DNA of 64,000 nt, taken from assembly GCA_032718475.1 (NCBI GenBank), contig JAUCBJ010008095.1, forward strand, positions 19,421 to 83,420, in the 5' to 3' direction. The DNA is from Nemertoderma westbladi (Eukaryota; Animalia; Xenacoelomorpha). The notes beneath the pieces were generated by a model. The model was given only the letters and a program-made list of their open reading frames with translations. It ran no database searches and was not told the origin of the DNA. The translations under genes were made by a program, and so were the position numbers. How positions within the stretch are numbered: position 1 is the stretch's first letter; each line of letters starts with the position of its first letter. Shown piece after piece: positions 1-50,293 of this stretch.

Positions 1-36
1 GAGACTATCTGACAGTGTTTGTTTTGTGTCAGCCAT
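1..36 (-). CDS. First 12 codons of gag-pol of element A (partial, runs off window)
   Basis: ATGGCTGACACAAAACAAACACTGTCAGATAGTCTC is homologous to the B ORF start at 20277. Confidence 0.75.
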   Translation of the reverse strand, partial: MADTKQTLSDSL

Positions 37-1586
37 GATTTATATTGCAGTTGAATGCCTACCACCATAACGACAGTTAAAGTAAGTCTAGTAATTCAGT
101 ATCAACTGTAAGCCTAGTAATTAATTACCGATACCGTTACTCAGTGTAACGTGATATATATAATATATTAAAATACCGGTATACACTTATAGTATATATA
201 AGTATTATTACAGACTAGGTTTAGTCACAGAATACCGGTATATAATTTCAGCCTAAATTTATATAAATATATATAATAAGCCTGCCTTAAATACCGGTAA
301 TGTCAATAATTTTATAATAACTGAATTTCTGAATTTTAGGGTGACTTCCCTTTACTTGTTACTGTTATTAAGCAGTAGTCCAACTGATATTAAGACCTAA
401 TTGATGTATAACAGGCCTACTATTTTATAAATCGGTTTGAGTTGATTTATAAGATATATATACCCGTACAATGGGTTTTGACAATGTTTGAAATAAATGT
501 TATTATTTCTGAGTAAGGAGTCACTACACAGAAGCTGAATACTCTCAGTGGAGTGCTACTTGTTGGACACTAATACGAATTATTCTACTTTACTAAGTTA
601 CTTATCACTACAAATTACTTACAATTACTGTGGGAGATTACAATCTCTAAACAAACAATAACAAGTTACACGTACAAATTTTAGGGTAATTTCACAAGAA
701 ATCTACAAACCAGAATAACAAGGAGTTAGAATTTCTGATTATTACAAACGGACAGGATACTACGGTATTTGAAAATAATAAAGCAGTAGTAAGTAAATTG
801 CGTTGTCCAGATAAGAAAATACCACCGTCTGACGACTTATAGCCGTAGCGCTATAAGTACTACGTTATGTACCCGGAGTGTCCTTACCTAGAAGTTAATT
901 ACCGCAGCCAACCAGAGCTAATGTGCCTATTAACCACTTTACAACACAAATATACTGCCTACACACAAAATTACTTTTGGAAAGCACTGTACTCTAAACC
1001 CTAAATTAGGTACAAGTACTTATACAACAAATAACCAGCAGTTAAATATACTTGTACAGCCAAAAGAACCACGGTATCTGATGGAGTGACCGGAGCACAA
1101 AATCACCAGTCTTTACCTAAGCCTAGCAGCCCTGATGTAGTACCGGGGTTAATTTAACTACAACGCTATGTATAACAAGCACAATTACTGTAGGAATGAA
1201 CTTGGGGAGTTTGTAGGTTGCAAATACTCGCATAAACTCTGAATAATAAATATTACGCTACCCGTGCAGATTATACAAACAAAATACAGACCAAATGCTG
1301 GCAGACTACTGTCAAGCCTAAATAAACTACAGTATATGCAGACTCCGAAATGGTTAGTTAGTAGGCGTTCTAACCGAGTAGTACGATTCGAGTAGTACGT
1401 ACGAGTAGGACGCAGTCCCTGATTAAATATCAATACCTACCGGTATACAATTATCAAAAATCGAATAATACTGTTGTACCTGTAAGTACCGGTTCGGGTA
1501 GTTAGGCAGTTAAGCCTACAGCTTACCGTTCGACCGGCACCTTCGACTTTATTGCCTACTGTGCAATAAAGAACAAAATCTATTAT

Positions 1587-4500
1587 TGTTTGAGCTTTCA
1601 GACCTTTAGCAGTTTAACCTGCCAAATTTAGGTGTCCTCTTGTTTATAAATCGACTTTAGCCTATAACAATTATTTTTAGTGCACATGAAGTTACATTAG
1701 CCGAAGCCAGTCTATGCGCGATCATTCACCCACTGTTAAGGGAGACTGGATTCGGGTGCTTTGAAAGTTATTGCGTTGCAGACCTACTGTATTATTCGAT
1801 TGATCATTACTATATAATCTCTGACAATATATTTACTTTTGGGGAAATATTAACAGTTCCTTTAGGACGTGGCGCTTTAAGTATATAAAACAGAGTTATG
1901 ACTTATACTAAACACAACGAGATGGCCACTGAGTTTCGTAAATAGGCATTCTTTAGGAGATGCTTTATTATCTGTCACACTACTTCACACGACTTCACAC
2001 TGATCTGCCGACCATCACTGAATTTGATCATATATAAGGAGGATAGCAACTGACACATGTAGGGATTATGAAATAGCATTTAATTCACATAAAAACCACT
2101 ATAATGTAAGTCGCAATTGCTACAGGTAACCGGTCCCTCTTACCTTCAGTAATCAAGAAGATTGGGGGTTTTATGATTATTTATCGTTATTCTCCAAATA
2201 TAACAACATATCCATCCATATACAACAATTAATAACAGACAGTAAACAAAAGTAAAATAATGCGGTGAACAGTCAGTATGTGTTGCTTATGCAGTGTTGT
2301 GCAGTACTTCAGTGCTCCAGGTTTGATAATAGATTTACGTTCTTGTAATCAAAGCCATCTAACCTAGTAAAACAAACTACCTAGTAAAACAAACAAATTG
2401 CGGCACTCTACCAGTACTACCTAGTAAAACAAACAAAGTGCGGCACTCTACCGGTACTACCTAGTGAAACTCAAAGTTCGGCACTCTACCAGTACTACCT
2501 AGTAAAACAAACAAAGTGCGGGACTCTACCGGTACTACCTAGTGAAACTCAAAGTTCGGCACTCTACTGGTACTACCTAGTAAAACAAACAAAGTGCGGC
2601 ACTCTACCAGTACTACCTAGTGAAACTCAAAGTCCGGCACTCTACCAGTACTACCTAGTAAAACAAACAAAGTGCGGCACTCCACCGCTACTACCTAGTA
2701 AAACAAACAAATTGCGGCACTCTACCAGTACTACCTAGTAAAACTCAAAGTCCGGCACTCTACCAGTACTACCTAGTAAAACTCAAAGGTCGGCACTCTA
2801 CCAGTACTACCTAGTAAAACTCAAAGTCCGGCACTCTACCGGTACTACCTAGTAAAACAAACAAAGTGCGGCACTCTACCAGTACTACCTAGTGAAACTC
2901 AAAGTCCGGCACTCTACCAGTACTACCTAGTAAAACAAACAAAGTGCGGCACTCTACCGGTACTACCTAGTGAAACTCAAAGTTCGGCACTCTACCAGTA
3001 CTACCTAGTAAAACAAACAAAGTGCGGCACTCTACCAGTACTACCTAGTGAAACTCAAAGTCCGGCACTCTACCAGTACTACCTAGTAAAACAAACAAAG
3101 TGCGGCACTCTACCGGTACTACCTAGTAAAACAAACAAAGTGCGGCACTCTACCAGTACTACCTAGTAAAACAAACAAAGTTCGGCACTCTACCGGTACT
3201 ACCTAGTAAAACAAACAAAGTGCGGCACTCTACCGGTACTACCTAGTGAAACTCAAAGTTCGGCACTCTACCAGTACTACCTAGTAAAACAAACAAAGTG
3301 CGGCACTCTACCGGTACTACCTAGTGAAACTCAAAGTTCGGCACTCTACTGGTACTACCTAGTAAAACAAACAAAGTGCGGAACTCTACCGGTACTACCT
3401 AGTGAAACTCAAAGTCCGGCACTCTACCAGTACTACCTAGTAAAACAAACAAAGTGCGGCACTCTACCGGTACTACCTAGTGAAACTCAAAGTTCGGCAC
3501 TCTATCAGTACTACCTAGTAAAACAAACAAAGTGCGGCACTCTACCGGTACTACCTAGTAAAACTCAAAGTTCGGCACTCTACCGGTACTACCTAGTAAA
3601 ACAAACAAAGTGCGGCACTCTACCGGTACTACCTAGTGAAACTCAAAGTTCGGCACTCTACCGGTAATACCTAGTAAAACAAACAAAGTGCGGCACTCTA
3701 CCAGTACTACCTAGTAAAACAAACAAAGTGCAGCACTCTACCGGTACTACCTAGTGAAACTCAAAGTTCGGCAATCTACTGGTACTACCTAGTAAAACAA
3801 ACAAAGTGCGGAACTCTACCGGTACTACCTAGTGAAACTCAAAGTCCGGCACTCTACCAGTACTACCTAGTAAAACAAACAAAGTGCGGCACTCTACCGG
3901 TACTACCTAGTGAAACTCAAAGTTCGGCACTCTATCAGTACTACCTAGTAAAACAAACAAAGTGCGGCACTCTACCGGTACTACCTAGTAAAACTCAAAG
4001 TTCGGCACTCTACCGGTACTACCTAGTAAAACAAACAAAGTGCGGCACTCTACCGGTACTACCTAGTGAAACTCAAAGTTCGGCACTCTACCGGTAATAC
4101 CTAGTAAAACAAACAAAGTGCGGCACTCTACCAGTACTACCTAGTAAAACAAACAAAGTGCGGCACTCTACCGGTACTACCTAGTGAAACTCAAAGTTCG
4201 GCACTCTACTGGTACTACCTAGTAAAACAAACAAAGTGCGGCACTCTACCGGTACTACCTAGTGAAACTCAAAGTTCGGCACTCTACCGGTAATACCTAG
4301 TAAAACAAACAAAGTGCGGCACTCTACCGGTACTACCTAGTGAAACAAACAAAGTTCGGCACTCTACCAGTACTACCTAGTAATACAAACAAAGTCCTAT
4401 ATCCGCAATATCCTACTGTAAAGTTTGTGAATCAAGGCATAATCCAACCTTCTCACCAAAACAGTAAACTCTAAGTAAGCAAATCTATTGCAGTATTGGT

Positions 4501-5690: not shown

Positions 5691-6244
5691 TGTAGCAATA
5701 ATTCTGACTTTATTACAGATAACCAACAAATTATACTAATACAAACAATTTATAAGTAATAAAGGTCTGCAACTGTGTAATCTATATAGGAACTAATGAA
5801 CAAAACCGCACCTTTTATAGCAAATTTGTGCCGCTAACAATCGAGATAAATCTAGATTGTTCTATGAGTTCCATTAGGTTTTTAAATATAATCATTGGTC
5901 CAGCAAACATATAACTTGCACAACATTGGTTACTGTCAAATAACTACAATCGCATTGGTTAATCTATCTTGAGCAGATGCAATTAAATCGTAGCGGTCAA
6001 TTCAAATGAGTTGAAATTTAGCACAAAAATAATTCGAACCTGCTAGGATTTGAACTCGATACCTACTAAACGATTTTCTAACGCATAACCGACTGAGCTA
6101 CTGAACCACTTGAACAATATTGTATAAATAGCTATATTAAATGCAAATGAGGACTTAATGTAATCTTTATAACACTAATGCAAGTTAATTCCAACAAAAT
6201 AAAATTTTGAAAATCCACGGCTTTTATGAGGATATAATTCTATA
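5691..6244 (-). repeat. Putative 3' LTR of element C (~554 bp)
   Basis: It follows the PPT-like TTTTCATGGAGCGG (compare B TTTTCTGGGAGCGG). It starts TATAG, probably a TG>TA change, contains CTATAAAAG and AATAAA, and ends GCTACA. No second copy is present to confirm it. Confidence 0.6.
6035..6107 (-). pseudogene. tRNA-derived cassette (Pol III A and B boxes), not a functional tRNA
   Basis: GGTTCAG-TAGCTCAGTCGG (A box) ... GAGTTCAAATCC (B box) over 73 nt. Acceptor and T stems pair poorly. Confidence 0.6.
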
Positions 6245-6880: not shown

Positions 6881-7653
6881 TTGCCTTACATTTTATTGCC
6901 TTTCAGAACGGGCCCTGCCGCGTCCTCGAAAACTACGTATAGGCGATTTATTTAGCTTGTGATACGGGACTTATGGGGCGAGTCACTAGTTTACCTTGGA
7001 CATTGGGAGATGGTGCGACCATTTCTTCACAAGCTCGTATTTTCGTAAACCCAAATCCTCGTCCGACTCCTCGTGACCGATTGGTTGTATCCACCGTTGG
7101 CAAAACATCTGGGAACGCGCGGGAAGCGGACGACGCAGACCCAAGAGAAACTTGCGCCCCCTTTTGATCAGCTGGTATGTGTCCCAGTCCTCCTTGCGGT
7201 TCTCTGGGAAGTGACACCGTATCCCGAGTAACTCGAATAGTCGGTTCAAATCCCTTTCGTTCTTCAATATTTATAGTTTTCTTTAGTTGTTGGCTCCTTT
7301 TGAACCCTTATGATCCTGTTCTGTCCGTCCTCCCGAGGGTGACGTGCAGACGGCGCAACCGGAGTAGCTGGTATGTTGGTCGCCTCTAGGATCTCCTCTT
7401 CCTCGAATACGCTTGCTCGTATGCGTTTGTGGTAGAATGCGGCTCAGTACGCCCATGCGACGGTTAACCAAGCTCCCTTGTTTCGCTTTTCTGTTCGGAA
7501 ACGATCAAATTCACCATATGTGATACGATTGACGACTTTCTGGAAGTTCCATGTATTCTTATTATCGGAATGAATCTGTAGCAAATATTCGCGCACAACT
7601 CTAAATCCACTATCATGAGGTAAAATATCAACTACCTCGATTAGTTCGTCATA

Positions 7654-10092: not shown

Positions 10093-10128
10093 AAATGCAG
10101 CTGCAATGCAGCATGCCGATCCTAGTAG
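7660..10128 (+). mobile_element. RTE-clade non-LTR retrotransposon, 5'-truncated, with short 3' UTR and TAG tail; 100-bp target site duplication (7560-7659 = 10129-10228)
   Basis: APE C-terminal motifs (SQIDHIL, SDHRL), RT motifs (QNGFR, DFFKAFDSV, GVLQGDTLAP, FADD), no C-terminal CCHC, and identical flanking direct repeats. Confidence 0.93.
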
Positions 10129-13100: not shown

Positions 13101-13817
13101 AATCTTTCAAATGGAGCTGCCGCTTCCTCTTGAATATCGTATCCTCATCTCGGCTCTCCAGATATCCCCTTTGCCATTATTAGAAGTATGGTTACATAAT
13201 CATTACTACTAGAGGGAATACAACAGAGTTTATGTTAGTTGTGAGGAGCTTTGAGAGTTTTCGTCTGCCCTTTTGGCTCGACAATGCTCTAACCTCCTAC
13301 CCATAGCCTAAGATCTAGGGTTTCTTTAATGACACACTGTTTCTTATCTAAAATTTTGCCGAAATAAAAACGATTTGGGCTAAACTGGCTGTGAGTCTAA
13401 AATACTCACCTTTTGATCCCAAACTATTATCAGAAAATAAGCAATCAAGAATTAGTAATAAATATAGGGAAGACTTATTGAAACACGACCGTGTAAAATT
13501 TAATATTAAAAAAGAAAGGCTCGTGAGTCTTCCGTTCTCTTGTTTCTCTAATTTTAAGTTCCACCCGACTGTACCCTGAAATCCATTCACTGGAGAAAAT
13601 TTTAAAATTTTTCAAATCCAAATGGATTGTCTAAAATTTCGAAAATGTCTCATATTGTGAGTTCCAAGTAGAATTCCATTTCTTATACCTACAAATCCCG
13701 CTCCTATGTGACACATAAGGGTACTACCCTCAATGTTCACATATAAAGACAATGGAAATCTACCGCAGTCTTTACTACAGTGTACAGGTACGCGGAAATC
13801 TATTTGTAAACTCCTTA

Positions 13818-16800: not shown

Positions 16801-16908
16801 AGCTTTGACAAGCAAGACCTCTTTGTCAGAGAATCTCCTTGAGCGTCCAGTCTTACTTTCACTCGAAAGTTGTCTGTGTTTGGGTCCCAAAATAGTCCCA
16901 ACACCTTG
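13818..16908 (-). pseudogene. pol 3' part of element C (RT connection, RNase H, low-complexity spacer, integrase) with a frameshift near 15010 and stops near 14932 and 14596
   Basis: ORFs 15009-16908, 14595-14861 and 13818-14564 are colinear with B pol. Confidence 0.9.
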
Positions 16909-18104
16909 TGTAAAAGCTTTTGTGGGATAACTGGTTCGTTTGCCTTGCTGGCCAGTTCCCCCCGGTCGCTAGAATACTCTAAAAGGGATCTATAGCTAAA
17001 ATAGTGCAAGCTACCAGCTTATTGGCTGATTTGCTGTACGAAGGTATCTGGGCTCCGTTTAATCGGCCAACCAGCCTAGGAAAGTTGCGTCATAGCCCTG
17101 TTTCTGTATCTGCCAATAGAATTTGAGTTGGCGTTGATTTTGACCTATCCCAGAGCTACTGAACTGAATTTCCTATCTGTATGCTCATCCTCTGTGTTGG
17201 ACGGGAGCTTCGTGGAATAAGGGTAGTTGGTATCCTCGTATAGGGTAGTAGTCATATGATTCTGTTGTTGTGTTCCCATTTTTTCGCCATAACACCGGCT
17301 TTTGGAACAACTCTAGCAAAAACTGCTTAGATTATAGAAAAGTATAACTGTTACCGGCGGTGTTACCTCACTTGATTTAACGGCACGGCACGGACTTTAA
17401 TTACTAATCATATTGTTTGTACTGCTATTTACCGTCAGTTATTAATTGTATCGATTTGTTGATGAAATATTGTCATTTGGAGAATATTGATAAATCACCC
17501 AAATTTCCCAATTTTCTTGATACACTACAGGTTAGAGAGACAGGCTATATATAACAATTGCGATTTATATCAATGTGGTGTGTATTGAATCTAATGTTAT
17601 TTAGTAGACACTACCTGAGTCAATTGCTGTTCTCTTTATGTGTGATCAAATATACTGACGGTCGGCAGAATAGTGTGCATGATTGTGAGTGTGACTGGTA
17701 ACAAAGCATTTCCTAAAGAATGCGCCTTATACTTTAATCATAAGCCTTATCGTTGCGTTTAGTATAAGTCCTAGCTCTGTTTAAATAGATAGAGCGCCAC
17801 ATCCTAAAGGAACTGTTAATATTTCCCGAAAGTTAATAATATCTGTCAGGAATTACATATTAGCGATCAATCGAATAATACAGTAGGCTTACACTGCAAC
17901 CTTACACTGCAATAATAAAATCTAAGCATCCGAATTCAGCCTCCCGGGTGTATCCATCGGGTGAATGATCGCGCATGGGCTGGCTTCGGCTAATGTTTGT
18001 TTATTAGCATAAAATATTGTCGTATGCTAAAGGTGTGTTAATTAACTAAAAGACATATAAATTTTGGCAGGTTAAACTGCTAAAGGTCTTCAAAAGCGCG
18101 AACA
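16909..18104 (+). repeat. 5' LTR of element B (1196 bp)
   Basis: About 99% identical to 36977-38174 (I counted ~7 substitutions and 2 single-base indels by eye). Confidence 0.95.
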
Positions 18105-18116
18105 GTAACAGTTATA
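18105..18116 (+). promoter_or_regulatory. Non-tRNA primer binding site of B (GTAACAGTTATA), complementary to LTR 17343-17354
   Basis: Exact 12-nt reverse complement, directly abutting the LTR end, with no TGG start. An equivalent covarying pair exists in A (1576-1586 / 2326-2336). Confidence 0.75.
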
Positions 18117-18443
18117 AGTCTTATTGCAGTAAGCAATAAGGTTGCAAAATACCGTAGTGACCGGTAAACCTGAACCGGTACTTCTGTAGGTCAGTAGGCC
18201 TAACTGTCATCACCGGTACCGGTACTGCTGTACAAGTACATTTAGTATTATTCGATTTTGATTATTGTATACCGGTAGGCTGTTTAAGAGATTAGGGACT
18301 GTACACCCCTTGTTTCTTTTGGAGCTTACTTATTTCTGTCAGTTTTATTTATTTGTAGGCCAGTATTGAGCAGAAGGCGTGTAAGCTTGTTCAGTCTATA
18401 CAGACAATTGGTAGGTCAGACTGTTGTCGGATTGTTGTTGAGT

Positions 18444-18975
18444 CTGGAGAGATTGCGGCGTGTGTAGAGTTTGTCTGATAAAGTGCCGTTAGTAAGTTGG
18501 GGCAGCCATATGCTGTAAGGTCAATCCCCTCTTAAAGAATAAGTCGTACTACCGTGTTAGAACGCATACTAACTAACAGTTTCAGAATCTGCATATACTG
18601 TAGTTTATTTAGGCTTGATCGTGGTCTGCCAGCATTTTGGCCTGTGTTTGTTTGTGTAGTCTGTTCAGGTACCGTAATAGTTATTACTCAAATATTTTGT
18701 AGGCTGGATTGTTGTCTAGCTATTCTTAGGTCTGAAGGGATTGCTGCGTGTGTAGAGTAAGTCTGATAAAGTGCCAGTTAGTAAGTTGGGGCAGCCATAT
18801 GCTGTAAGGTCAATCCCCTCTTAAAGAATAAGTCGTACTACCGTGTTAGAACGCATACTAACTAACAGTTTCAGAATCTGCACATACTGTAGTTTGTTTA
18901 GGCTTGATAGTAGTCTGCCAGCGTTTGGTTTGTATTTTTGCTTGAGTATTCTGTACGGGTAGCGTAATATTTATT
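18444..18975 (+). repeat. Direct duplication (period ~290 bp) in the leader of B
   Basis: GATTGC.GCGTGTGTAGAGT...GGCTTGAT occurs at ~18451 and ~18740. Confidence 0.8.
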
Positions 18976-20276: not shown

Positions 20277-23200
20277 ATGTCTGACACTCAGCAAAACCTG
20301 TCAGACAGTCTGATCGATACAACCATCTGTGACACAGATAGGAGTGTGGAGCGATTAAGAAAGGAGTTCAGCTCACCTCCTACTGCAAGAAAGGTCATCC
20401 CTCCAGTAGTATCAGACCCTAGGCTAATCCACCATAGGTCCATCATAGGCACTCGGGCACAGGTCAAACGGAACCAAGAGGCAGTTGTCCTATCGCAGCA
20501 ACATCTTGGTCAAGAACCTACTTCCCAGCGACCCGATAGCTCCAGTAGTTCGGATACTGTAGAGCTGACCCCCGAACGCGGAGTGCAGATGGCTGCTACA
20601 GTCTACTCGGACCCCCTTCTCACCCTTCCTGCTGCAGTGCTAACTACTATATTCATTGCGGTGGAGGAACATCAAGCCGACTGGGCGAGAAATAAGCGAG
20701 CGACCCAAGATAATTATGCGGGATACGCCAGGGAAGAATTGATGTCTATTGTCGAGTCACAATGGAACTTTCCCGAACTCGGACTCCCGTTGGATCTGTC
20801 CGAGGCTACTTGGGAAGATATACACAGGATGGGAGTGGCTAAAGATACAATGGATCCAGCTGTTTGGAAGAGGTCGGCAGCAGGATATGTGCAGGGATTC
20901 TTCGGCTCCTTGGAGCGATTGGAAGAACAACTGTTTCGACAACCCCAAGGACCTCAAGAGCAGGAAGAGCTGCTATACCAAGTACGCGAAAGAACCCTAC
21001 GTATTCGACTAATCCTATCAGCCTTTGAGGAAACTTCCAAAAGAAGACAGGACACGTCACTGCAGGTTGCTGTCAAAACTTGGTTCCATCGGGTAGGTCT
21101 CAAAGTACAGGAAACGGCCCAGTGGAAATCCCAGCTGGGTGAGAGATCAACCTATGAAGAACAAACTGATGCCACCCTTTCTCAAGCGGAAAGCGAAGAG
21201 ACCGCCGAGAAACCGCGAACTAGAGACGCTATCGACATTTATCTGTCCGACTATCAGCGATTCCTAGGAGACGAAGAGTTGAGGAGACGGCTGTCTGGAC
21301 TTTCCCCTAATAGTGAAGGAACCAAGCTTGTGTTGGACTCAATCGATGCCGAAATGTTAGCTGCAAACCAAGCTGAATTTGATGAAAAACTCCGCCTCAC
21401 TAGAGTCCGAGAAGAACAAGTAAAGAAAGAACGGATAGAGAAAAGAAAGGTGGCAGCAGCAGCGGCGGCAGAAGCAGAAGCCGAAAGAAAAGCGGCAGAA
21501 GCAGAAGCCGAAAGAAAGGCGGCAGAAGCAGAAGCCGAAAGAAAGGCGGCAGAAGCAGAAGCCGAAAGAAAGGCGGCAGAAGCAGAAGCCGAAAGAAAGG
21601 CGGCAGAAGCAGAAGCCGAAAGAAAGGCGGCAAAAGCAGAAGCCGAAAGAAAGGCGGCAGAAGCAGAAGCAGAAAGAAAAGCAGCAGTGGCAGAAGCAGA
21701 ACGGAGAGCTTCTGAGGAGACTATCCAACTGGAGTTGGAAAATCTGCAAGAGACGCAAGACAGTATAAATAAACAGTTTACTGCTAATCAAATGCAGATG
21801 ATGAGAAAATCTACTCCCAAGCGCCAGGGATACACATCCTCGGAGGAAGGCGAGACCACCGATCCTGAAGGCAGAGGAAATAGATCTCATCTAAGTAGGC
21901 GTAGAAAAACATCTTACCGTCGCAAATTGCCTGATTTGCCCCCAGCTGTTAGAAGACAGCTAGCTAGCACAGACTTGAGTAGTATAGAACCTACAGCCCA
22001 AAGTATTAAGGTCAAAAGACTCCCTACAATAGTTGATGAGCCTGAAATAATTAGGCCTGTCGTTCCCAAAGTCACTTCTGTGTTAGAGACCCCTGTACTT
22101 CCAGAGCTTAACTCTAAATTCCCTTTACATAGTACTACACTGCCTGTACCCGGTAGAACAGTCCAAGAGAATATCCCTGTCCGGATAGCAGAGAGAGAAA
22201 TCAAAGATTTGTCTCCCGTCGTCCCGCGTCAGCCCGCTACTATGTTGGCGACTCCCGCTTCGGCGGTCGAGTGGGTAGAAGAGGGACGGCGGGGGATGAA
22301 TCTCCTGCTAGGACAGATGCAGGAGACTGTCCACCAACTTAAGGGAACAGTGAGGGAAGGTAGAGCAGAGTTGCAAGAAGTGCAGCAAAGTATCGCACTA
22401 GAACGCGACAAATTAGTCAATATCCAAAAGGGCATACCAATACCCCCTGTAACATTGTGTCAACCTGTTAGGTCTGAAGTACTACATGCGCAAGGTGTGG
22501 AGCCTACACGCATCTATACTGCTAGTAAAGTAGAAACTCCTATAGCAAACCCTATTGAGGGTGATTATACGCCTGTTGCTAATGATATTCCCTATAGACC
22601 TGATAATAATCCGAGAAATTTATATACCGATAATTCGATATTAAATAATACGATGGCCCAAGAAAGCTTTACACGTCAGATGGCCAGAACAGAAGCCCGC
22701 CAGGCTGTTAAAGTGGGAGAAATCGTCAAATTCAATGGAGATGAGATGAAATGGTTACCGTTTAATGAATATTACGAAGATAGCATACAGAACTCTGTAC
22801 TATCTAGCGGAGAGAAATTGAGATTCCTCATCAAATGTTTGGAAGGACCTCCCAAGTTAATGGCGTTGAAGTTTATTGGACATCCAAATGGATTAAGACA
22901 AGTTTGGGATACATTAAACACCAGGTATGGTAATAAGGATAACATCGCTAAGTATTTGTATGCAAAACTAGTAGCCCCCCGCAAGTTCCTCAGTAACGAG
23001 ATTATAGAGTTTTCCGATGAGATTCAAGAGATCTGCCGACAATTGCATTGGTTAGGTAAGTCTCATGAATATCAGAGTTCTATGGTTATTGGAGCCATAG
23101 TCTCTACTTTGCCAAAGGGTGGAGTATGTACTCGCTGGGATAAGAAGGTATTGTATATGAATGAGCAGCAACGACGAAGCCCTACCATGGCTGATCTCAT

Positions 23201-26200
23201 GTCCTTCTTAGATGGTGAAGTAAAACTACAACTCATCAAGCAGTCCAGAGAGAAAACATCGGAAAATAAGGTGAGTGAGAAACCCATTTCTAGGAGAAGA
23301 GTAACACCTGTGTGTTATACTGATGACTGCGAAAGCCAAGCTTCTCAAGAGGAAGACAGCGGGAAAGACACCGAGAAATTTTACTATATTAACAAGACCT
23401 CAAAGGACGTAAGTAAACCTAAAGCTCGAACCCATGACAGAAGAGAACAGGTTAGTAAGACTCCTCCTCAGTCTCCTAGCAGAGTACACGGAAGAAAGCC
23501 CGAAGAAAGAACGAGAGTGCATAACGTTACCCAAGGTAAAGTGAGTAACATTAAACCAAACTGTGTGCTGTGCGACGGGCCCCACCGTTTGAGTGCGTGT
23601 GCTGAGTTCCTTAAGAAATCCCTAGTAGCCAGACGAGAGGTTGTGTGGGATAAGCGGTTATGCTATAATTGCCTCAGACCAGGACACCAACGGCGAACCT
23701 GTTACTCCGACATAAAGTGTGCAAAGTGCGGTACGCAACATCACGTCTTGTTACATAGCGAATTCGAACGAAACCACCTGAGTCAGGTAAGTGAGCCCGA
23801 ATTACATGTCCAGTTCAGTGATGTGAACGACACTGACCAAGGTTCTGAGTGGGAAGGATTCTATACAGACGAATTCTCCGATGCCAACGAATCCTGTTAT
23901 CTAATAAATACCACAGTGTATCGAGCACTTACGTATGAAAAGGACACTGACGAGTTTACTCCAACTCCTTTTGACAAACAACCATCTTGGAAAGTTCCAA
24001 CTTCCAACATAGGAATAAGAGAATTTCCTGTAGTGCAAGTGAGAGTTCATGGTCTCAACAAGAGTTACATAGTGAACGCCCTACTTGACTCCGGCAGCAC
24101 AGGAACATTCATCGATCAAGAACTAGCCGAAGATATCTTTGCTGGACAACCCAAGTTCCGGACTGAATTGAATATGTCAGGAATTATGCAGGTTTGGAAA
24201 TCTACCCTAACGGCAGATTACTATGTAGGTGTGTTGTCCACCCCCCAGGATAAGTTAGGAACACAAGGTATAAGGTCAGTAAAAATGGTGGCTATAAAGA
24301 ACTTTGCTACTACTCAAGCAGACCTTTATAATTGGGACGAGGATGAGAGCATCCAACATCTTAAGATACCTCGATTCCAGACAGATTATCCTGGAGTGCA
24401 AATACTCATCGGCCAAAACGCGCACGAGGCGCTCGAAACATTAGAGAAACGGCCTGCTCAACCACAGCCACTGCAAACCTATGCGGTAAGAACTAGAGTA
24501 GGTTGGTACTTTACTGGCCCTTCCCGTAGAACTCTCGAAGAGAGAATGCCACACGAACAAATATATCAAGTAAACGATTGGGAAGTGGAAAGCAGTGAGG
24601 TGGACGAACTAACTGAAGGAACACCATACTCCTCAGATAATGACGACATCTACCAACTCTTCGATGAAGAGAACACAATGGACCTACTTACCGAAAACCA
24701 AACTTGGAAAAATCAGGTGAATCTATGTCAACTGATTCGCCCATTGGAACCCATTGCTTACAATGACGAACTAAACGATGAGATAGAGCGCTACAACGCT
24801 AGAACTCGGGACGAACTAGCCGTACGATTCTTTACCCAAGAATTGGTAGAACCCAATTCATACGACAAAGCCCTGTCGATAGAAGAAGAAAGAGCCAAGC
24901 AAATCCAGGAAACAACCACACGTTTTTTAAAAGATCAAGGTAGATATGAAATCGGACTACCCTTCCGAAAACGGGAACCTAGATTTATAAATAACAGACC
25001 CTTGGCTGAGAAAAGAATCAATCAATTACATCGACGTCTTACGGCAAATGCTTCAGCTAAGGAAATGTACCAAACTCAGTTGAAGAAATTTATCACAAAG
25101 GGATATGCGGAGCGAGTACCGGAAGGAACTCCAATAACTGAAAGAACTTATTATCTAATACATCATTACGTTCCCAAACCCGGTAAACCCCATGAAGTAC
25201 GGGTCGTATTTGATGGCTCCGCCCTATATATGGGCCAATCCCTCAATTCCGAGTTGTTACCAGGACCCAACTTGCTCCAATCTTTGTTGGGAATACTTTT
25301 AAGATTAAGACAATATTCCATCGCGTTCGCCTCCGATATAGAAGGAATGTTCTTACAAGTCAAGGCGTTGGATCGTGATAGAGACAGCCTAAGATTCCTG
25401 TGGTGGCCTGAAGGAGATCTCAACCAGAAACCGGTAGAGTACTGGATGACCATCCAGGCTTTTGGGATTATATCAAGCCCTTCAAACGCCTGCTCAGTGG
25501 TTCGTACCACTGCGGATGACAACCGGGATGCCTTCTCCAAAGAGGTGATAGATAACATCAAACGAGACATATACATGGACGACAATTTAAAGTCCCTTCC
25601 ATCAGTAAAAGAAGCCATTGATGTCGCGAAAGGAACGGTTGAGTGTTTGAAAAGAGGTGGATTTCGATTGACGAAGTTCACCAGCAACTCCCATGAGTTT
25701 CTGGAAGCAATATCTGTAGAAGACCGGGGATCAAAAGACCTCGACTTAATACATGACGATCTTCCGGAAACCAAGACGCTTGGCTTGAAGTGGGACACAG
25801 AAAGAGATATCCTGTTTTTTCAGCTAAAACAGCGAGATAATCCAGTTCGGACCAAACGGATTTGTTTAAGTATTCTGAGCACTTATTTCGATCCCTTGGG
25901 ATTTATTAGCCCAGTTATATTGATTGCTCGGAGTTTAGTACAACAAATGTGGCTTGAAAACCACTCGTGGGACGATCCACTCAAGGGAGAACTATTAAAG
26001 AAATGGATGAAATGGGAGGACTCGCTACCTGCCATCAAGAACTTTATAATTTCCCGTTCATATTTTGGTCATGTTCTCCCTACGTATTCCTATCAACTCC
26101 ATGTATTTGGAGATGCCAGCGATATGGGAATCGGTATAGTAGCATACCTGCGAGTCGAAACTCCGGATGGAATCAAAGTTGCCTTGGTTACCTCTAAGGC

Positions 26201-28457
26201 ATTGATTAACAACAAGCTTAAGGTTCCTCGGGCGGAGTTAAAAGCAGCTTTATACGCTACAGCTATCGGCCGGAATGTAACAGAACAGATCGATTATCCA
26301 CTGGAGAAAACTGTTTATTGGACCGACGCTTTACTTGTGTTGGAATATATAACGAATGAAGTCTGTCAGTTCAGCGTCTTTGTTACTAACAGAGTGGCCA
26401 TTATTCTTAGTCGCACAACGATAGATTAATGGAGACACTGCCCTGGTACGATTAATCCAGCTGACATCGCCTCCAGAGGAGCCACTCCACAGGAACTGAT
26501 AGATACTCCAGACTGGTTGGGTGGACCCGACTTCCTGAGCAAGGAAGAAGATGAATGGCCTCCTCACCTTACTACGGCAGAGATCAGACAAGCCAAGGGA
26601 GCGGAAAAGGTCAAACCTAAAACCCGAGCGAGCAAGTCGAAGTTATTTAAACCGATGATCGATCTATCTGTATTACATGCTTCCGGAAATGATGCTTCAG
26701 ATCCACAATCCCTCGTCACGAACAAGTCTGTTGTGGAAATTAAGGATAGAGATTGGAAATCTGGAATACCAGACGTCTCGCAAGGAATCTCACCCCTGCT
26801 GCAGCAAGCAATACATCATTACAGTTCCTGGAATCGGCTCTGTAAGGCCGTCGCATATTTAAAGCGATGTTTTCATCATCGTTATTCCAGGACGAAGACC
26901 ACTAATGATACTGCTCCATTAACATCGGTCCAAGTTCATGCTATTAAAGATTTACCTAAATATAAAATACCCGATCGGTTTCTAAAAGAAAAGATCAGTT
27001 ACCAGGAGCATGAAGAAGCCAATAAACAGATACTGCGACTCCTGCAATGCTACGAGGATTCCGATAAGTATTTCCTGTTGTTAAGAAATCCACAGATGCG
27101 CTTAAGGGATCGCTTCTCTAGCACAATGATAGATGGGTTAATACGTGTTGGAGGAAGGCTAACTAATGCGCCATTATCTTTTGACACTAAATTCCCCATA
27201 CTCATTAGGAATTTTGAAGTACAAGTCAAGATGATTGTAGATGTTCACAGTAAACTTTATCATGCTGGTAGAGAACGAGTTCTTAGCGAAATTCGAACTC
27301 GCTATTATTTCTATAAACCACGTAGAGCTCTGAACCAAGTTCTTAGGAACTGCATACCCTGTAGGAAAGCATTCAGTAGGCCTTTAACACAGCGAGAGGC
27401 AGAATTACCTAGGGAACGAGTAAGCTTTTATGAACCACCCTTCACTAATACTGGTGTAGATTTATTTGGCCCTATTGAAGTATATCGCGCTAGGACTATA
27501 GTCAAGAGATGGTGTGTCATCTTCGTATGTATGACTTGCAGAGCCATCCATCTTGATATGGTGAACGATCTATCTACTAACAGCTTCGTCTTAAGTTTAC
27601 GACGACAGATCGCTCGCTTCGGAACTAGTAATACCATGCGATCGGACAAGGGAACGAACTTCATTGGTGCCAACAACGAAATTCAGGCTTACGTAAAGGA
27701 CTGGAATCAAAGACAGGTGGACGACCAGCTACGGATAACAGCGTCTAGCTGGACCTTTAACGCCGCCGACGCCCCTTGGTGGGGAGGAAGTTGGGAGAGA
27801 TTAATTCGAAGTGTCAAAACCGCATTTCACTTTATAGTGCCGTGCCGCGCATATCTCACTGACGAACTTCTGCGGACGTTAATGGAGGAAATCGCTGCCT
27901 ATCTTAACGAGAGACCGCTTATGCCAGTCTCATCGAGTCCCGACTCCCTGGAAGCGCTAACACCCGCTCACTTCCTACTTAAGAAACCTGTAGCCATGCT
28001 CCCACAATCCGAGATTGCCGACGGAGATGAATACTGCCGTCGAACTTGGCAGCTTATGCAGTTGCTATCCCGTCGTTTCGCTGACCATTTTGAGAAACAT
28101 TATCTGCCCACGCTACAACTTCGAACTAAGTGGTTTGCGCAGCAGGAAAATGTCAGCGCCGGAGACATGGTGCTTATTGTAGATCCGGACCTTCCACGCA
28201 GACGGTGGCAGACAGGTCGTATCATTGAGACGCACATCTCGGAGGATGGTTTAGTGCGCTCAGTAGAACTCGTCATCATGCGGCGTAACTTCAAGAAACC
28301 TGGCATAATCTTTGAGACGCAACAACTCAATCGCCCAGTTGGTCGTTTATGTTTGCTGGAAAGAGACCGGGAACTCTCTGGAAACTATGGAAGGCAAGAA
28401 ACTCTTCCCACGACCACCTCCCTAATCCCTCAAACATCTAGGGGCTCCTCAACGTAG
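20277..28457 (+). CDS. BEL/Pao Gag-Pol polyprotein (2726 codons) with one in-frame TAA at 26427-26429
   Basis: Gag (FNGD...W..F, CVLC..H..C, CYNC..H..C, CAKC..HH..LH), protease LLDSGS, RT YMDD, RNase H HVFGDAS, integrase HHCC and GVDLFGP/SDKGTNF/WER. The frame continues ID*WRHCPG. Confidence 0.93.
21462..21710 (+). repeat. 27-bp coding tandem repeat, ~9 x AEAERKAAE
   Basis: Read directly. Confidence 0.95.
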
Positions 28458-29161: not shown

Positions 29162-32100
29162 TGATGTGATTTCATATATTCAATATTTACATGTACTTAT
29201 ATCTTATATCTAGTTAGGTCGTCCCTGATATTGTAACTGTCAATCATATACAATACCGGTACTCCAGTATTGTACTTGTGTCGTACTTCAGTACTTGTCA
29301 TATCTGCATGTCAATACATTCTGCTTGTGTCTTTCTTATCATACTACAGTGTTGTATAATCCAGCCTAATATATAGAACCTGCATACCTAAACTGCATTT
29401 CATATATCATAACATGGCGCTAGTGTGTATTTCTGGATTACTGTAGTCAGTTAACCAGCAAACATTCAATTTTGTAATTGCTGAATTAACACTACAAATG
29501 CTGAAATGGCTGAATATAACACGCCACCAAGCCAGCGTATTCAGTTGACACTCGACTCTGCAGATATAAACGGGTTAGTTACTGGCCAATCCCCTCCGTT
29601 TTTCGGCTTTAGTGAAGCCACTACACCTTCGCACGATGCCATTGGATTTGGCCCATTGGTTGACCTCAATGGTCCCCCCACGACACCGGTACCTGTACCT
29701 AGACCGGATTATAAACCGGCCCCCATCAACATTGCTGGATTAGTGCAAGGTTTCGCTGACGTTTTGGCTACGCAGCAAAACCAACTCGAGGATCAACGTC
29801 GGAAGGATGAAACATTCCGCCGAACCGAGGAATTACGATTACGCAGGGAAGATTTTGCGTATTTCGAACAGGCTAGGCAGCGGGACAACGAACGACTGCA
29901 AGAGTTCCTGTCAACCGCACTGCGTCAACCGCGGGGTGACGCTCCAAGCGATCCAGATCCTGGTATACATCGACGAAACCTCACTCATCAACCATCCCGA
30001 TCATCCAACAACAACTTGGCCCGTTCTTCACTGGCCAAAGTCCCACCCCCCCTTTCTAACGAAGCCTCGATGGCGGATTTTGCACGGTGGCGCCGTTTAT
30101 GGGATGGATTCGTCGTTATACAACGACTAGATCAAGTTGAACGCGAAGAACAAAAGGCCGCCCTCAACCAGGCACTGAGCCCAGAGCTTCAGGACCTGTT
30201 ACATCACGGTTTAAATATTTCGAGTTCAGGTGACGATGTTGATGTAGATGACATTCTATCTGCAATTGAATCTTACCTTCGCCAAAAACGCAATATCGCA
30301 TTGGACCGAATTGCCTTTGATGAGCGCAAACAGACTGCTGGAGAATCCTTCGACAGCTTTTATGTTGACCTACAGCGTTTGGGGAAAGATGCTGATTTAT
30401 GCTCTCATTGCTTCGATGATCGATTGGTCGATCGCATCATAACAGGTGGCGGCGACCCTGAAATCCGTCGGCGGTTATTGGCTAAACGCCCCCGCCCCTC
30501 ACTACAGGATACTGTAGATTTCTGTCGCGCTGAGGAAGCAGCTCAACGCAATGAATCGAGCCTTTCCACATCAAAGATTCTTAATATTTCCGCCAAATCA
30601 TCACATAAGGGTCAACAGCGAAGTTTCTCCCAATACCGGCCCCAACATAGATCCAAATCAAGGGATAAAGTCAAAGACAGGACGCCGGTACCTCAGTCCC
30701 AACCATGCCCATATTGCGGAAAACAGAAGCACAAACAAGGTCAGTATTGCCCAGCTAGCAATTCAACATGTAGATTTTGTAAAGTAAAGGGCCACTGGGA
30801 CACAGTGTGTTTCAAGAAAAAAGGAACACATAAATCGAAAATGAATTCAAATCACAGTATTTCTAATGTCGAATCCGATGAAAAGTTACAAACTGGCACT
30901 ATAAAACTCTCTATTAGTTCTGTGGACCTTACAAATAATAAAAATACCCCAATGGTATTTGTCCACCTCCAGACAAGCAATCGTATGACCTCTGTCGGAT
31001 TCTATGCCACTCCAGACACTGGTGCTGCAGTGACACTGTTTCCCCAAACCAATCTGAAGGATTTGTCTTTATCTGAATCTGAGTTACAGTCTACATCTGT
31101 AAAATTATCTAATGCAGATGGTGGGGATATCGACTGTATTGGAACATTTTTATGTAAAATAACCCTTGGTAACCGCCACTCAACAGTGCGGGCTTATGTT
31201 TGTAATTCAGCCAAACATATTCTCCTGGACTGGACTGTTTGTCAAGAACTAGGAATTATCTCAGCAGACTTTCCCTCTCAGGAGTCAACCTTGTATGTCT
31301 CTCATATCCCAGAACTTAATTCATTGAAAGGTTTACCTAACACTCCCACAGATTCCGAGACTAATGCAATCAAAGAATCCATTATGAAAGAATATTCCGA
31401 TGTTTTTTCCACTGAGGGAGCCTTGAAACCAATGAATGGGGAGCCTATGCAGATTCATCTCAAAGATGATGCACAACCTTTCGCCATTTCGACTGCCCGA
31501 CCTGTTAGTCTGGCCATCAGAGATCGAGTCAAAGCAGAGATTAATCGCATGGTCGAACAAGGTATCATTGCTCCAATTGGAGATGTTGTCACACAGTGGT
31601 GTCACCCACTTGTTGCTGTTATACACCAAAGTGGTAAACTAAGAATATGTACTGACTTCACTAAGTTAAATAAATACTGCATCCGACCTTATCATCCAAT
31701 GGTCACACCAAAGGCTGCCATAGATGGTATCTCTTCTGGAGATAAATATTTTTCCACGGTTGATGCAGTTAAAGGTTATTGGCAGATAGAGTTAGCTGAA
31801 GAATGCCAGCATCTCACTACCTTCATATGCTCAGAAGGCAGATTCAAATATCTACGAGCCCCCATGGGACTCTCATCCACGGGTGATGAATATAACCACC
31901 GTGGTGACTTGGCGTTTTCTGGATTGTCCAATTATGAAAAAGTAGTGGATGACATCCTCATCCACACAACAGACTTCCATGAACATGTCAACTCAGTCCT
32001 TCAAGTTCTGCAGCGTTGTCGGCAGAATGGAATTACCTTAAATCCGACCAAATTTCAATTTGCCAGGTCTGAAGTTAAGTTTGTAGGCTACAAAGTTGGT

Positions 32101-34528
32101 CGTGACGGAATTAAAGCCGATCCAAGTAAACTCTCTGCTATTCGTGAATTTCCTGAACCACATGGTATCCGCGATCTCAGATCCTTCTTCGGTATCGTAA
32201 ATCAATTGGGGATGTTTTCACGAGACATAAGTGCTGCAGCTGAACCCCTTCGCCCTCTTTTAAAGAAGTCTAACCAATTTTCATGGAATTCCAATCATGC
32301 AGAAGCATTTACAAAGGTCAAGGAGGCCCTGTGCACTCCAGCTGTGCTCCAGCCATTTGACCCCAACCTTCCAACTGTCCTGCAAACTGACGCCTCCCGA
32401 ACCAAGGGACTTGGGTTTGCTCTCTTACAGAGACACTGTAATGGATTGCATCTCGTTCAGTGTGGATCTAGATTCATTTCAGATACGGAATCGCGATATG
32501 CGATGGTTGAATTGGAAATGTTGGCCATCGTGTATGCCGTACAGAAATGTCGGTTATACCTACTGGGAATAAACTTCAATTTACTCACAGATCACAAACC
32601 ATTGATACCAATATTGAACGATAAATCATTATCATCAATTGACAACCCACGATTGCTTAGAATGAAGGAGAAACTTATACCTTACACATTTGTTACCGAA
32701 TGGCAGAGTGGAGCTAACCATCATATTCCTGATGCATTATCTCGCGCCCCTGTTCAAGGGCCCAGTGAGGAAGACAAATTAGCTGAAGATGAACTACAAC
32801 ATCTTATCTGTGCTCATATATTCGCAATAGGGCAACAGATTGATGAGGATGAAGACCCACCAGGAATGACCTCACTCACGGATCCAATATTAACTAAACT
32901 CCGCAATTCAGCTGCCAGTGATTCAGACTATTGCGAGCTGGTACAATCTATAGAACGCGGTTTCCCTGAAAAGAAAGATGCACCAGCATACCTCCTTCCT
33001 TATTACAGCTTAACTGACAATCTATCAACAGATAACGGTCTAGCCCTCTTTGATTCCCGAATTATTATTCCAAAATGTCAAAGAAAGGAAGTATTAAGAC
33101 GCCTGCATGCATCTCATCAGGGTACTGAGCGTACCAAACGGCGTGCTCGGCTTACAGTATATTGGCCCGGTCTGTCCGCAGACATCATTAATGTAGTTGG
33201 CATGTGTCAACCATGCCAAGAACGGCGGGCATCCTTACCAGCCGAGCCGCTTCTTAGGGACCCACCCCCTTCTCGACCTTTTGAACAAACCGCTGCCGAT
33301 ATAGGTCACCATGGTGGGAAAGCATATCTCATATATGTAGACCGTTATTCAGGTTGGCCAGAGGTAGCAGAATTTTTGCATGAACCGGACTCCGCTAAAG
33401 TTGTTAATGTTTTAAAGCGTTTTTTTACTGCCACAGGCATTCCTGTTAAATTTAGGTCAGATGGAGGACCCCAATTTACATCATCAACATTCAAAGCCTT
33501 TGCCAGCAATTGGGAATTTGACCATGTGCAATCCATGCCTCATTTCCCATCCAGCAATGGTCTGGCCGAATCAGCTGTAAAATCCATGAAACACCTGATT
33601 GCCACCACAGGTGGTGACATTCATAGTGATAACTTCCGTCTTGGATTACTAGAATTTCGCAATACTCCGCGTACTTCCGGATACTCACCAGCACAATTAA
33701 TTTTCGGCCGCCCTTTACGTTCCATTGTGCCTTGTCATATATCAGCCTTTGCCTCTAAATGGCTTGATGACACTCATGAATCACAGTCCGAATCTACAAA
33801 CACCGCTACAAAGAACGAATTACGCCGACCTTTGACACCCTTAACCATTGGCCAAAGTGTATGGTTTCAAAATCATTCTACAAAACGATGGTCACAACAT
33901 GGTACAGTAATAGAAAGACAAGGAAGAAACTACCTTGTGAAACTGTTGTCTGGTAGATCACTGTGGCGCAACCGCCGTCATATACGCGCCCGTATCGATC
34001 CTACCAATCAAGATTCTGGAGGGAAGGTGCCCAATGATGATTCTCGTACACTGAATCCTCCGTCCACCCCGCGAGTTAAATTTCATGACAACCTCACCGA
34101 GCATGAATATGACAGTAACTCGCCACCTACTCGCCAAAGTTCCCGATTAAGGAAAGCTCCAAACTATTTCGGATTTAATTAACAGCTTTACGATTCTAAA
34201 CCGAAAGTAAATAACTGGAACAATGAACTGAAGGTAATTAACTGAAAAGAATCATTTCATCTCGATAGGGGAGTTGATGTGATTTCATATATTCAATATT
34301 TACATGTACTTATATCTTATATCTAGTTAGGTCGTCCCTGATATTGTAACTGTCAATCATATACAATACCGGTACTCCAGTATTGTACTTGTGTCGTACT
34401 TCAGTACTTGTCATATCTGCATGTCAATACATTCTGCTTGTGTCTTTCTTATCATACTACAGTGTTGTATAATCCAGCCTAATATATAGAACCTGCATAC
34501 CTAAACTGCATTTTCATATATCATAACA
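29162..34528 (+). mobile_element. Intact Ty3/Gypsy (Mag-like) LTR retrotransposon nested in B; LTRs 29162-29414 and 34275-34528; TSD CTAGT
   Basis: The LTRs differ by one T. PBS TGGCGC at 29415, PPT AGGGGAG before the 3' LTR, and CTAGT at 29157-29161 and 34529-34533. Confidence 0.97.
29506..34182 (+). CDS. Gypsy Gag-Pol polyprotein, 1558 aa, uninterrupted
   Basis: Two zinc knuckles, protease DTGA, RT (DAVKGYWQ, PMGL, VVDD), RNase H (TDAS, ELE, TDHKPL), integrase (HHCC, D-D-E, SNGLAE). Confidence 0.96.
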   Translation: MAEYNTPPSQRIQLTLDSADINGLVTGQSPPFFGFSEATTPSHDAIGFGPLVDLNGPPTTPVPVPRPDYKPAPINIAGLVQGFADVLATQQNQLEDQRRKDETFRRTEELRLRREDFAYFEQARQRDNERLQEFLSTALRQPRGDAPSDPDPGIHRRNLTHQPSRSSNNNLARSSLAKVPPPLSNEASMADFARWRRLWDGFVVIQRLDQVEREEQKAALNQALSPELQDLLHHGLNISSSGDDVDVDDILSAIESYLRQKRNIALDRIAFDERKQTAGESFDSFYVDLQRLGKDADLCSHCFDDRLVDRIITGGGDPEIRRRLLAKRPRPSLQDTVDFCRAEEAAQRNESSLSTSKILNISAKSSHKGQQRSFSQYRPQHRSKSRDKVKDRTPVPQSQPCPYCGKQKHKQGQYCPASNSTCRFCKVKGHWDTVCFKKKGTHKSKMNSNHSISNVESDEKLQTGTIKLSISSVDLTNNKNTPMVFVHLQTSNRMTSVGFYATPDTGAAVTLFPQTNLKDLSLSESELQSTSVKLSNADGGDIDCIGTFLCKITLGNRHSTVRAYVCNSAKHILLDWTVCQELGIISADFPSQESTLYVSHIPELNSLKGLPNTPTDSETNAIKESIMKEYSDVFSTEGALKPMNGEPMQIHLKDDAQPFAISTARPVSLAIRDRVKAEINRMVEQGIIAPIGDVVTQWCHPLVAVIHQSGKLRICTDFTKLNKYCIRPYHPMVTPKAAIDGISSGDKYFSTVDAVKGYWQIELAEECQHLTTFICSEGRFKYLRAPMGLSSTGDEYNHRGDLAFSGLSNYEKVVDDILIHTTDFHEHVNSVLQVLQRCRQNGITLNPTKFQFARSEVKFVGYKVGRDGIKADPSKLSAIREFPEPHGIRDLRSFFGIVNQLGMFSRDISAAAEPLRPLLKKSNQFSWNSNHAEAFTKVKEALCTPAVLQPFDPNLPTVLQTDASRTKGLGFALLQRHCNGLHLVQCGSRFISDTESRYAMVELEMLAIVYAVQKCRLYLLGINFNLLTDHKPLIPILNDKSLSSIDNPRLLRMKEKLIPYTFVTEWQSGANHHIPDALSRAPVQGPSEEDKLAEDELQHLICAHIFAIGQQIDEDEDPPGMTSLTDPILTKLRNSAASDSDYCELVQSIERGFPEKKDAPAYLLPYYSLTDNLSTDNGLALFDSRIIIPKCQRKEVLRRLHASHQGTERTKRRARLTVYWPGLSADIINVVGMCQPCQERRASLPAEPLLRDPPPSRPFEQTAADIGHHGGKAYLIYVDRYSGWPEVAEFLHEPDSAKVVNVLKRFFTATGIPVKFRSDGGPQFTSSTFKAFASNWEFDHVQSMPHFPSSNGLAESAVKSMKHLIATTGGDIHSDNFRLGLLEFRNTPRTSGYSPAQLIFGRPLRSIVPCHISAFASKWLDDTHESQSESTNTATKNELRRPLTPLTIGQSVWFQNHSTKRWSQHGTVIERQGRNYLVKLLSGRSLWRNRRHIRARIDPTNQDSGGKVPNDDSRTLNPPSTPRVKFHDNLTEHEYDSNSPPTRQSSRLRKAPNYFGFN

Positions 34529-36898: not shown

Positions 36899-36976
36899 CT
36901 GTTTAGAGTATTTACGTATATTAGAAACTGTGATTTTGTATATTTTATAGACTTAAATCCCATTTTCTGGGAGCGG

Positions 36977-38174
36977 TGTAAAAGCTTTTGTGGGATAACT
37001 GGTTCGTTTGCCTTGCTGGCCAGTTCCCCCCGGTCGCTAGAATACTCTAAAAAGGGATCTATAGCTAAAATAGTGCAAGCTACCAGCTTATTGGCTGATT
37101 TGCTGTACGAAGGTATCTGGGCTCCGTTTAATCGGCCAACCAGCCTAGGAAAGTTGCGTCATAGCCCTGTTTCTGTATCTGCCAATAGAATTTGAGTTGG
37201 CGTTGATTTTGACCTATCCCAGAGCTACTGAACTGAATTTCCTATCTGTATGCTCATCCTCTGTGTTGGACGGGAGCTTCGTGGAATAAGGGTAGTTGGT
37301 ATCCTCGTATAGAGTAGTAGTCATATGATTCTGTTGTTGTGTTCCCATTTTTTCGCCATAACACCGGCTTTTGGAACAACTCTAGCAAAAACTGCTTAGA
37401 TTATAGAAAAGTATAACTGTTACCGGCGGTGTTACCTCACTTAATTTAACGGCACGGCACGGACTTTAATTACTAATCATATTGTTTGTACTGTTATTTA
37501 CCGTCAGTTATTAATTGTATCGATTTGTTGATGAAATATTGTCATTTGGAGAATATTGATAAATCACCCAAATTTCCCAATTTTCTTGATACACTACAGG
37601 TTAGAGAGACAGGCTATATATAACAATTGCGATTTATATCAATGTGGTGTGTATTGAATCTAATGTTATTTAGTAGACACTACCTGAGTCAATTGCTGTT
37701 CTCTTTATGTGTGATCAAATATACTGACGGTCGGCAGAATAGTGTGCATGATTGTGAGTGTGACTGGTAACAAAGCATTTCCTAAAGAATGCGCCTTATA
37801 CTTTAATCATAAGCCTTATCGTTGCGTTTAGTATAAGTCCTAGCTCTGTTTAAATAGATAGAGCACCTCGTCCTAAAGGAACTGTTAATATTTCCCGAAA
37901 GTTAATAATATCTGTCAGAAATTACATATTAGCGATCAATCGAATAATACAGTAGGCTTACACTGCAACCTTACACTGCAATAATAAAATCTAAGCATCC
38001 GAATTCAGCCTCCCGGGTGTATCCATCGGGTGAATGATCGCGCATGGGCTGGCTTCGGCTAATGTTTTGTTTATTAGCATAAAATATTGTCGTATGCTAA
38101 AGGTGTGTTAATTAACTAAAAGACATATAAATTTTGGCAGGTTAAACTGCTAAAGGTCTTCAAAAGCGCGAACA
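36977..38174 (+). repeat. 3' LTR of element B (1198 bp)
   Basis: Direct repeat of 16909-18104, preceded by the PPT. Confidence 0.95.
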
Positions 38175-43160: not shown

Positions 43161-43166
43161 CCAGCC

Positions 43167-48770: not shown

Positions 48771-48806
<36 letters not shown>

Positions 48807-50161: not shown

Positions 50162-50293
50162 ACAGGTACATGTAGTGTGTACGTGATGGATAATACAGTT
50201 TAGGGCAGTAGGGTACAGTACCAGGTATGGATCGACCGAATTTAATTTGCCGAAACGGAACCGAACCGAATTAAGAAAAATTAGGCAAATTTG

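Follow-up and report, generated by a model that had tools for sequence, protein, structure and literature searches.

In two related LTR retrotransposons of Nemertoderma westbladi, elements A and B, the PBS is the exact complement of a segment of the element's own LTR. Judging from the sequence, it is quite likely that RNA of this segment, and not a host tRNA, would prime minus-strand DNA synthesis in BEL/Pao elements of the A/B type. Both elements lie in a stretch of 64,000 nucleotides that was analysed as a whole (the window), and positions are counted from its first letter.

PBS-LTR pairing in elements A and B

The two elements have the following features:
1..1575, minus strand: long leader and gag start of A (ATG at 36), 85% identical to the B leader over 173-1386
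1576..1586, minus strand: PBS of A, 11 nt without TGG, immediately 3' of the LTR's terminal CA (LTR end at 1587)
1587..2361, minus strand: recognisable part of the A 5' LTR, 74% identical to the B LTR over 1587-2261
2326..2336, minus strand: A LTR segment, exact complement of the A PBS and candidate self-primer
2376..4395, minus strand: 78-bp tandem array, about 26 copies, adjoining the A LTR upstream of the candidate primer
16909..18104, plus strand: B 5' LTR, TG...CA, 1196 nt
17344..17354, plus strand: B LTR segment, exact complement of the B PBS (12 bp including 17343)
18105..18115, plus strand: PBS of B, without TGG
20277..26429, plus strand: B gag-pol frame with DUF1759, Cys-His knuckles, protease motif, RT motif YMDD and Peptidase_A17 region
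26430..28457, plus strand: B frame past the stop, with integrase zinc finger and DUF5641
29162..34528, plus strand: Ty3/gypsy-type insertion within B, flanked by a 5-bp target duplication; its TGG-type site is at 29415
36969..36976, plus strand: polypurine-tract-like run adjoining the B 3' LTR
36977..38174, plus strand: B 3' LTR, with 7 substitutions and 2 indels relative to the 5' LTR

By its predicted proteins, B is a BEL/Pao LTR retrotransposon. Its two LTRs are 99.25% identical, its gag-pol frame terminates at an in-frame stop (26427-26429), and Pfam matches were obtained for Peptidase_A17 (E 3e-36), DUF1759, DUF5641 and Integrase_H2C2. The protease and RT motifs follow the BEL/Pao order (protease-RT-RNase H-integrase), acidic motifs typical of RNase H are present, and PF05380 was present in most of the best protein relatives of B. 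No chromodomain match was found in B in the Pfam search, and its Pol is not of the Ty3/gypsy type. According to ICTV, Belpaoviridae have an 18-nt PBS for tRNA-Arg/Gly and a genome of 4-10 kb (PMC8742986). B resembles Belpaoviridae/Semotivirus in Peptidase_A17, DUF1759, DUF5641, the integrase zinc finger, the TG...CA LTRs and the polypurine tract, but it lacks a tRNA site and spans about 16 kb excluding the gypsy insert. The 18-nt tRNA PBS, which neither A nor B has, is a described trait of the family and not its phylogenetic criterion.

Element A is a sister family of B, as judged by the shared LTR, leader and gag start, and its BEL/Pao membership is assigned solely through the homology of these three parts to B; its coding region beyond the gag start falls outside the window. 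The A LTR was untraceable upstream of approximately 2362, where the tandem array begins. The array has no counterpart in the B LTR, and the idea that it is part of A's U3 was set aside because B is devoid of it and contigs of one run diverge from the A sequence at 2362.

On the minus strand, the A PBS (1586-1576) exactly complements 2336-2326, 739 nt from the LTR end, and in B 18105-18115 exactly complements 17344-17354, 750 nt from the LTR end, with one extra base extending the helix to 12 bp. The A coordinates and the distances of 739 and 750 nt, first given in the initial annotation, were confirmed. The pairing ends precisely at the terminal CA of the LTR in both elements, and the TGG tRNA site is absent after the LTR in both. 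The B 3' LTR carries an identical 11-mer (37413-37423), and the segment is thus present in both B LTRs. A 2-nt split extension of the pairing in B was rejected as chance. A donor scan revealed no recognisable intron at the LTR segment of either element.

The A and B PBS differ at positions 1, 5, 8 and 10, and the A/B alignment corroborated the earlier reading that all four changes are mirrored in the LTR segment. In line with the homologous context claimed earlier, the LTR segments of A and B share ungapped alignment columns, as do their post-LTR segments; identity around the LTR segment is weak (40-50% in 40-column windows, A versus B). Duplex energies were -8.0 (A/A) and -11.7 (B/B) kcal/mol for the own pairs, compared to +0.1 and -3.8 kcal/mol for the crossed A/B pairs. 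A fixed external primer, against which the initial annotation had argued, does not account for two different sites, each pairing with its own LTR alone.

Contigs of four runs aligned to A and B contained many diverged copies and were too short to link a PBS with its LTR segment. No variants at 22 key positions were present among the matches listed for the short contigs of these four runs, on B and on A, and one low-depth contig, not linked to a partner segment, had a different first PBS letter. In several contigs the A block from 2325 upward is retained and other sequence takes the place of the stretch immediately 3' of the segment.

A shuffled-sequence null was run, and the exact 11-mer was found in 31 of 20000 (A) and 11 of 20000 (B) dinucleotide-shuffled LTRs. 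Along the actual leaders, an 11-nt complement begins at 5 of 1522 positions in A and at 6 of 2141 in B (approximately 0.3%), counts that include the PBS itself and a second conserved helix. Eleven helices of at least 8 bp are common to A and B over 1054 columns, and the PBS-LTR helix alone has more than one two-sided change (four, without G-U). The chance of four mirrored changes is approximately 1e-5 if they are independent. The earlier argument that four compensated changes are improbable by chance holds under this condition, but the changes are probably not independent compensations, because self-priming re-copies the PBS from the primer. Nor does A count as the independent replicate that it had been taken for; A and B represent a second state of one mechanism and not a statistical replicate.

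Self-complementary sites and predicted introns in distant relatives

Relatives were collected by protein search and alignment (the best 80 of 516 metagenome loci, plus 15 genome-bin loci; 34-44% identity). The latter (L081-L095) are 15 contigs with BEL/Pao sequence in bacterial genome bins, probably misbinned DNA of host animals. The LTR pair set the 5' LTR end in 23 loci, and leaving out L071, which is identical to L072, gave a sample of 22. Of the 22 relatives, 14 passed a strict self-complement test, 5 with an unsplit match and 9 in which a GT-AG intron with strong splice signals divides the match. Among the controls the pass rate was approximately 1.5%: swapped pairs passed 7 times in 552, with 3 of these passes joining close kin, and shifted windows 11 times in 744. 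The five unsplit relatives have an LTR complement of 10-12 nt (threshold at least 10 nt); in unsplit relatives the segment lies 86-175 nt from the LTR end, compared to 739-750 nt in A and B.

The strict test was failed by eight relatives. Two of them, L059 and L075, have a TGG site and neither has a self-complement match. The TGG site of L075 resembles a tRNA-Arg site. That of L059 matches the tRNA-Met site quoted in the accessible part of PMC5445492. The other six were L009, which missed the pyrimidine cut-off; L083, with tied donors; L019, L046 and L094, whose LTR ends were misplaced and which have 11, 10 and 12 nt matches after correction; and L086, with 9 of 10 positions paired and one unpaired position in its 10-nt junction. 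A 13-nt split match in L046/L047 was rejected once the true LTR end was located. A looser scan detected split matches in 30 of 74 loci, compared to 5 and 6 in two controls.

Thirty-six loci, representing 29 families, were curated by hand, with some PBS starts set by hand, and the counts in this set are therefore not unbiased. The 29 families contain 25 distinct 11-mers, each matched by the family's own LTR or own LTR splice junction, which further speaks against a fixed external primer. The match length had its mode at 11 nt (16 of the 29 families), and the helix ended at the LTR end or at most 5 nt away in all cases. Almost all curated loci have a PBS beginning with GT, unlike A. Searching viral and metagenome contigs with a conserved 21-nt LTR-end pattern yielded 0 matches, and a protein profile search of viral contigs retrieved no relative.

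The intron signals were evaluated separately. Requiring a GT donor only, a split match of at least 11 nt was present in 11 of 22 relatives; with seven decoy dinucleotide pairs in place of GT, only 0-3 of the 22 had one. Seven of the eight loci with a single best donor read GTAAG, the background of GTRAG being 48 of 1265 GT sites (3.8%). In L073, the first half of the segment runs up to a GTAAGT donor at 137, and the second half lies beyond a 536-nt intron. The exactly joined form exists as DNA in the 3' LTR of L067, of the same family, whose 5' piece shows the intron end; both loci are short-read contigs and may merge copies. This exact intron loss indicates that spliced RNA would have been reverse-transcribed in the L073/L067 family. 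The other predicted junctions were not detected as DNA (0 of 21 motifs in the 95 loci). In many distant relatives, the primer segment would likely form only after removal of the predicted intron.

We built an RT-RNase H tree of 104 sequences, limited to fetched sequences and with a root that depends on distant insect proteins. Split types were spread throughout the tree and unsplit types appeared in several places, while the two TGG types clustered together (support 0.99). Beside the relatives, B formed a long and weakly supported branch (0.33-0.84), and for this reason the splice evidence of the relatives extends to A and B by analogy only. The order of gain and loss is not fixed by the tree, in which intron loss in A and B is a supposition.

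Proposed priming mechanism and its alternatives

What is directly seen is the pairing and where it lies relative to the LTR end, together with the mirrored changes, its recurrence in relatives and the intron signals; from these we infer the following steps. The LTR segment would be transcribed, probably tens to approximately 100 nt inside the RNA. In families with an intron, host splicing would join the two halves of the segment, while A, B and some relatives would carry it ready-made. The segment would then fold onto the PBS, aided by a second helix enclosing the PBS. Cleavage of the RNA immediately 3' of the segment, for which the RNase H of the element is the probable enzyme as in Tf1, would leave a 3' end beside the LTR's CA. 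For Tf1, an 11-nt primer and RNase H cleavage were reportedly described by Levin in 1996. Plus-strand synthesis would copy the primer back into the PBS, and in this way changes of the segment would pass into the site. For the LTR portion upstream of the cut, the 3' LTR copy in the RNA would serve as the source; the intron would be kept unless this 3' copy was also spliced, in which case intron-less LTRs would result.

Neither B nor any of the 36 curated loci has a TATA box 25-35 nt upstream of the segment, and the Tf1 layout, in which the primer is the 5' end of the RNA, is therefore not supported. L067 has a TATA 124 nt upstream of the segment. Based on both observations, the predicted primer is probably an internal part of the transcript and not its 5' end.

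The additional helices are located as follows:
1461..1471, minus strand: leader arm of the second 11-bp helix of A
1605..1626, minus strand: conserved 8-bp hairpin of A just upstream of the LTR end (B counterpart 18063-18084)
1789..1799, minus strand: LTR arm of the second, invariant 11-bp helix of A, enclosing the PBS
17871..17881, plus strand: LTR arm of the second 11-bp helix of B (partner 18245-18255)

Neither this second LTR-leader helix nor the hairpin shows covariation between A and B. The known self-priming system is that of the Tf1/sushi group (Tf1, Tf2 and Tj1), which, in the accessible part of PMC4600332, has no tRNA site and a PBS complementary to its own LTR-derived RNA. A and B share with it a PBS that is perfectly complementary to the own LTR and ends at the LTR boundary, but they belong to the BEL/Pao superfamily and not to the Ty3/gypsy chromoviruses. 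In Tf1, extra duplexes flank the central one, as far as the available text of PMC4600332 and 10.1101/2022.12.06.519325 goes. The second helix and the hairpin of A and B resemble the extra duplexes in the latter text, but the geometry differs: the Tf1 pretzel described there has two flanking duplexes, while A and B have one enclosing helix and one local hairpin. Approximately half of the Tf1 cDNA has a reverse-transcribed PBS at its 3' end, according to the portion of PMC11042837 at hand, and the mirrored changes in A and B may therefore arise from one mutation each. Such re-copying weakens the statistical reading of the four compensations and leaves the conclusion of self-priming intact.

Three other explanations of the pairing were weighed. 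We consider it unlikely that the pairing has a structural function in the 5' RNA (as a helix for packaging, dimer formation or a translation switch, possibly gated by splicing) while another primer is used. A second long-range helix is likewise conserved in A and B, and in B the segment is 750 nt from the PBS, as would suit a structural role. However, in all cases the pairing ends no more than 5 nt from the LTR end, where a primer must sit; it replaces the TGG site and is missing where TGG exists; and the LTR-PBS and polypurine tract-LTR spacers were concordant for zero or non-zero length in 22 of 24 families, which are related and not independent. Priming by a host RNA (a tRNA fragment or other small RNA), with the LTR segment a mere resemblance, is very improbable. 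The tRNA-Arg or tRNA-Gly site of the family (PMC8742986) and the TGG sites in 2 of 22 relatives would agree with it, but the A and B PBS disagree at 4 of their 11 positions, the curated families hold nearly as many 11-mers as there are families, with every 11-mer finding its match in the LTR or junction of its own family, and neither Rfam matches nor tRNA genes (ARAGORN) were detected in the region. The possibility that the complementarity arose by chance or through misassembly is practically negligible, in spite of the AT-rich 11-mers and DNA, the 0.3% of leader positions and the many short-read assemblies among the relatives, given the shared A/B columns with their four mirrored changes, the presence of the segment in both B LTRs and the pass rate of the relatives compared to the controls.

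Returning to self-priming, the preferred reading, we lean towards a broader scenario, in which a wide animal lineage of BEL/Pao would have swapped tRNA priming for a primer cut from its own RNA and built by host splicing of an LTR intron. Only spliced genomes would be copied, A and B would be intron-less derivatives, and the primer-PBS pair would drift freely as each round rewrites the site.

Until now, self-priming has been known from a single gypsy lineage and predicted for a single copia lineage, while BEL/Pao has been described with tRNA priming. In the accessible part of PMC6317226, self-priming is predicted from complementarity alone for the TAR lineage (Houba, Osr-1; Ty1/copia) and the Tcn1 clade; these are plant copia and gypsy elements, and an intron-split primer is not described in that part. 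For the fungal GalEa copia elements, the available text of PMC5445492 gives a non-tRNA PBS with a conserved palindromic 9-mer hairpin, for which no LTR complement was found. A and B are similar to these GalEa elements in having a non-tRNA sequence with a complementary partner at the PBS position, but their PBS varies freely and the partner is in the LTR. Full-text literature searches yielded no paper that describes self-priming or an intron-split primer in BEL/Pao, although subscription papers, supplements, Repbase, Dfam and GyDB may contain such a description. Term look-ups in the Sinbad and BEL/Pao survey papers (PMC554778, PMC3118150) gave no discussion of PBS or tRNA, and the accessible parts of PMC3601003, PMC12440569 and PMC8220671 have nothing on priming. 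If true, self-priming in a third superfamily would mean that the trick arose repeatedly. A primer assembled by splicing would, if true, tie reverse transcription to host RNA processing and presumably free the elements from silencing by tRNA fragments. Filters that rely on a tRNA-based PBS can miss such elements, and a self-complementary PBS explains why.

Surroundings of the elements in the window

The gypsy-type insert in B has an ordinary TGG site and thus provides an internal contrast to A and B. The B leader is 2.2 kb long (18105-20276) and contains a 288-nt duplication, the B gag has a long N-terminus with a 27-bp coding repeat (21464-21701), and approximately 3 kb of extra 3' sequence lies outside the gypsy insert (28458-36976, plus strand), including a 205-aa frame without a Pfam match.

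A third BEL/Pao element, C (10307-16907, minus strand; 42% protein identity to B), is interrupted by the B 5' LTR. No target-site duplication flanks B (16899-16908 versus 38175-38184) and the upstream pol of C does not resume beyond B, suggesting recombination or a flanking deletion. The 5' LTR of C was not found in the window. Element C has extra 3' frames of 376, 201 and 198 aa without Pfam matches, one of which has weak similarity (27% over 77 aa) to the B 3' region; near 6250 the element has a purine run resembling that of B.

A further RT element (7560-10233, plus strand) is probably Penelope-like; it contains 105-nt direct repeats and matches RVT_1 and, weakly, DUF6451. At approximately 6040-6110 (minus strand), a tRNA-like sequence was recognised by eye, probably a SINE head, that was called by neither ARAGORN nor Rfam. 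Inverted-repeat elements and tandem arrays, unrelated to the PBS pairing, occupy 40400-41412, 42075-43160, 43159-43988, 46794-50650 and 55688-55841. Two uninterrupted host-like frames are present on the minus strand, one with LisH and WD40 (56930-58483, 517 aa) and the other an MFS transporter (61760-63424, 554 aa).
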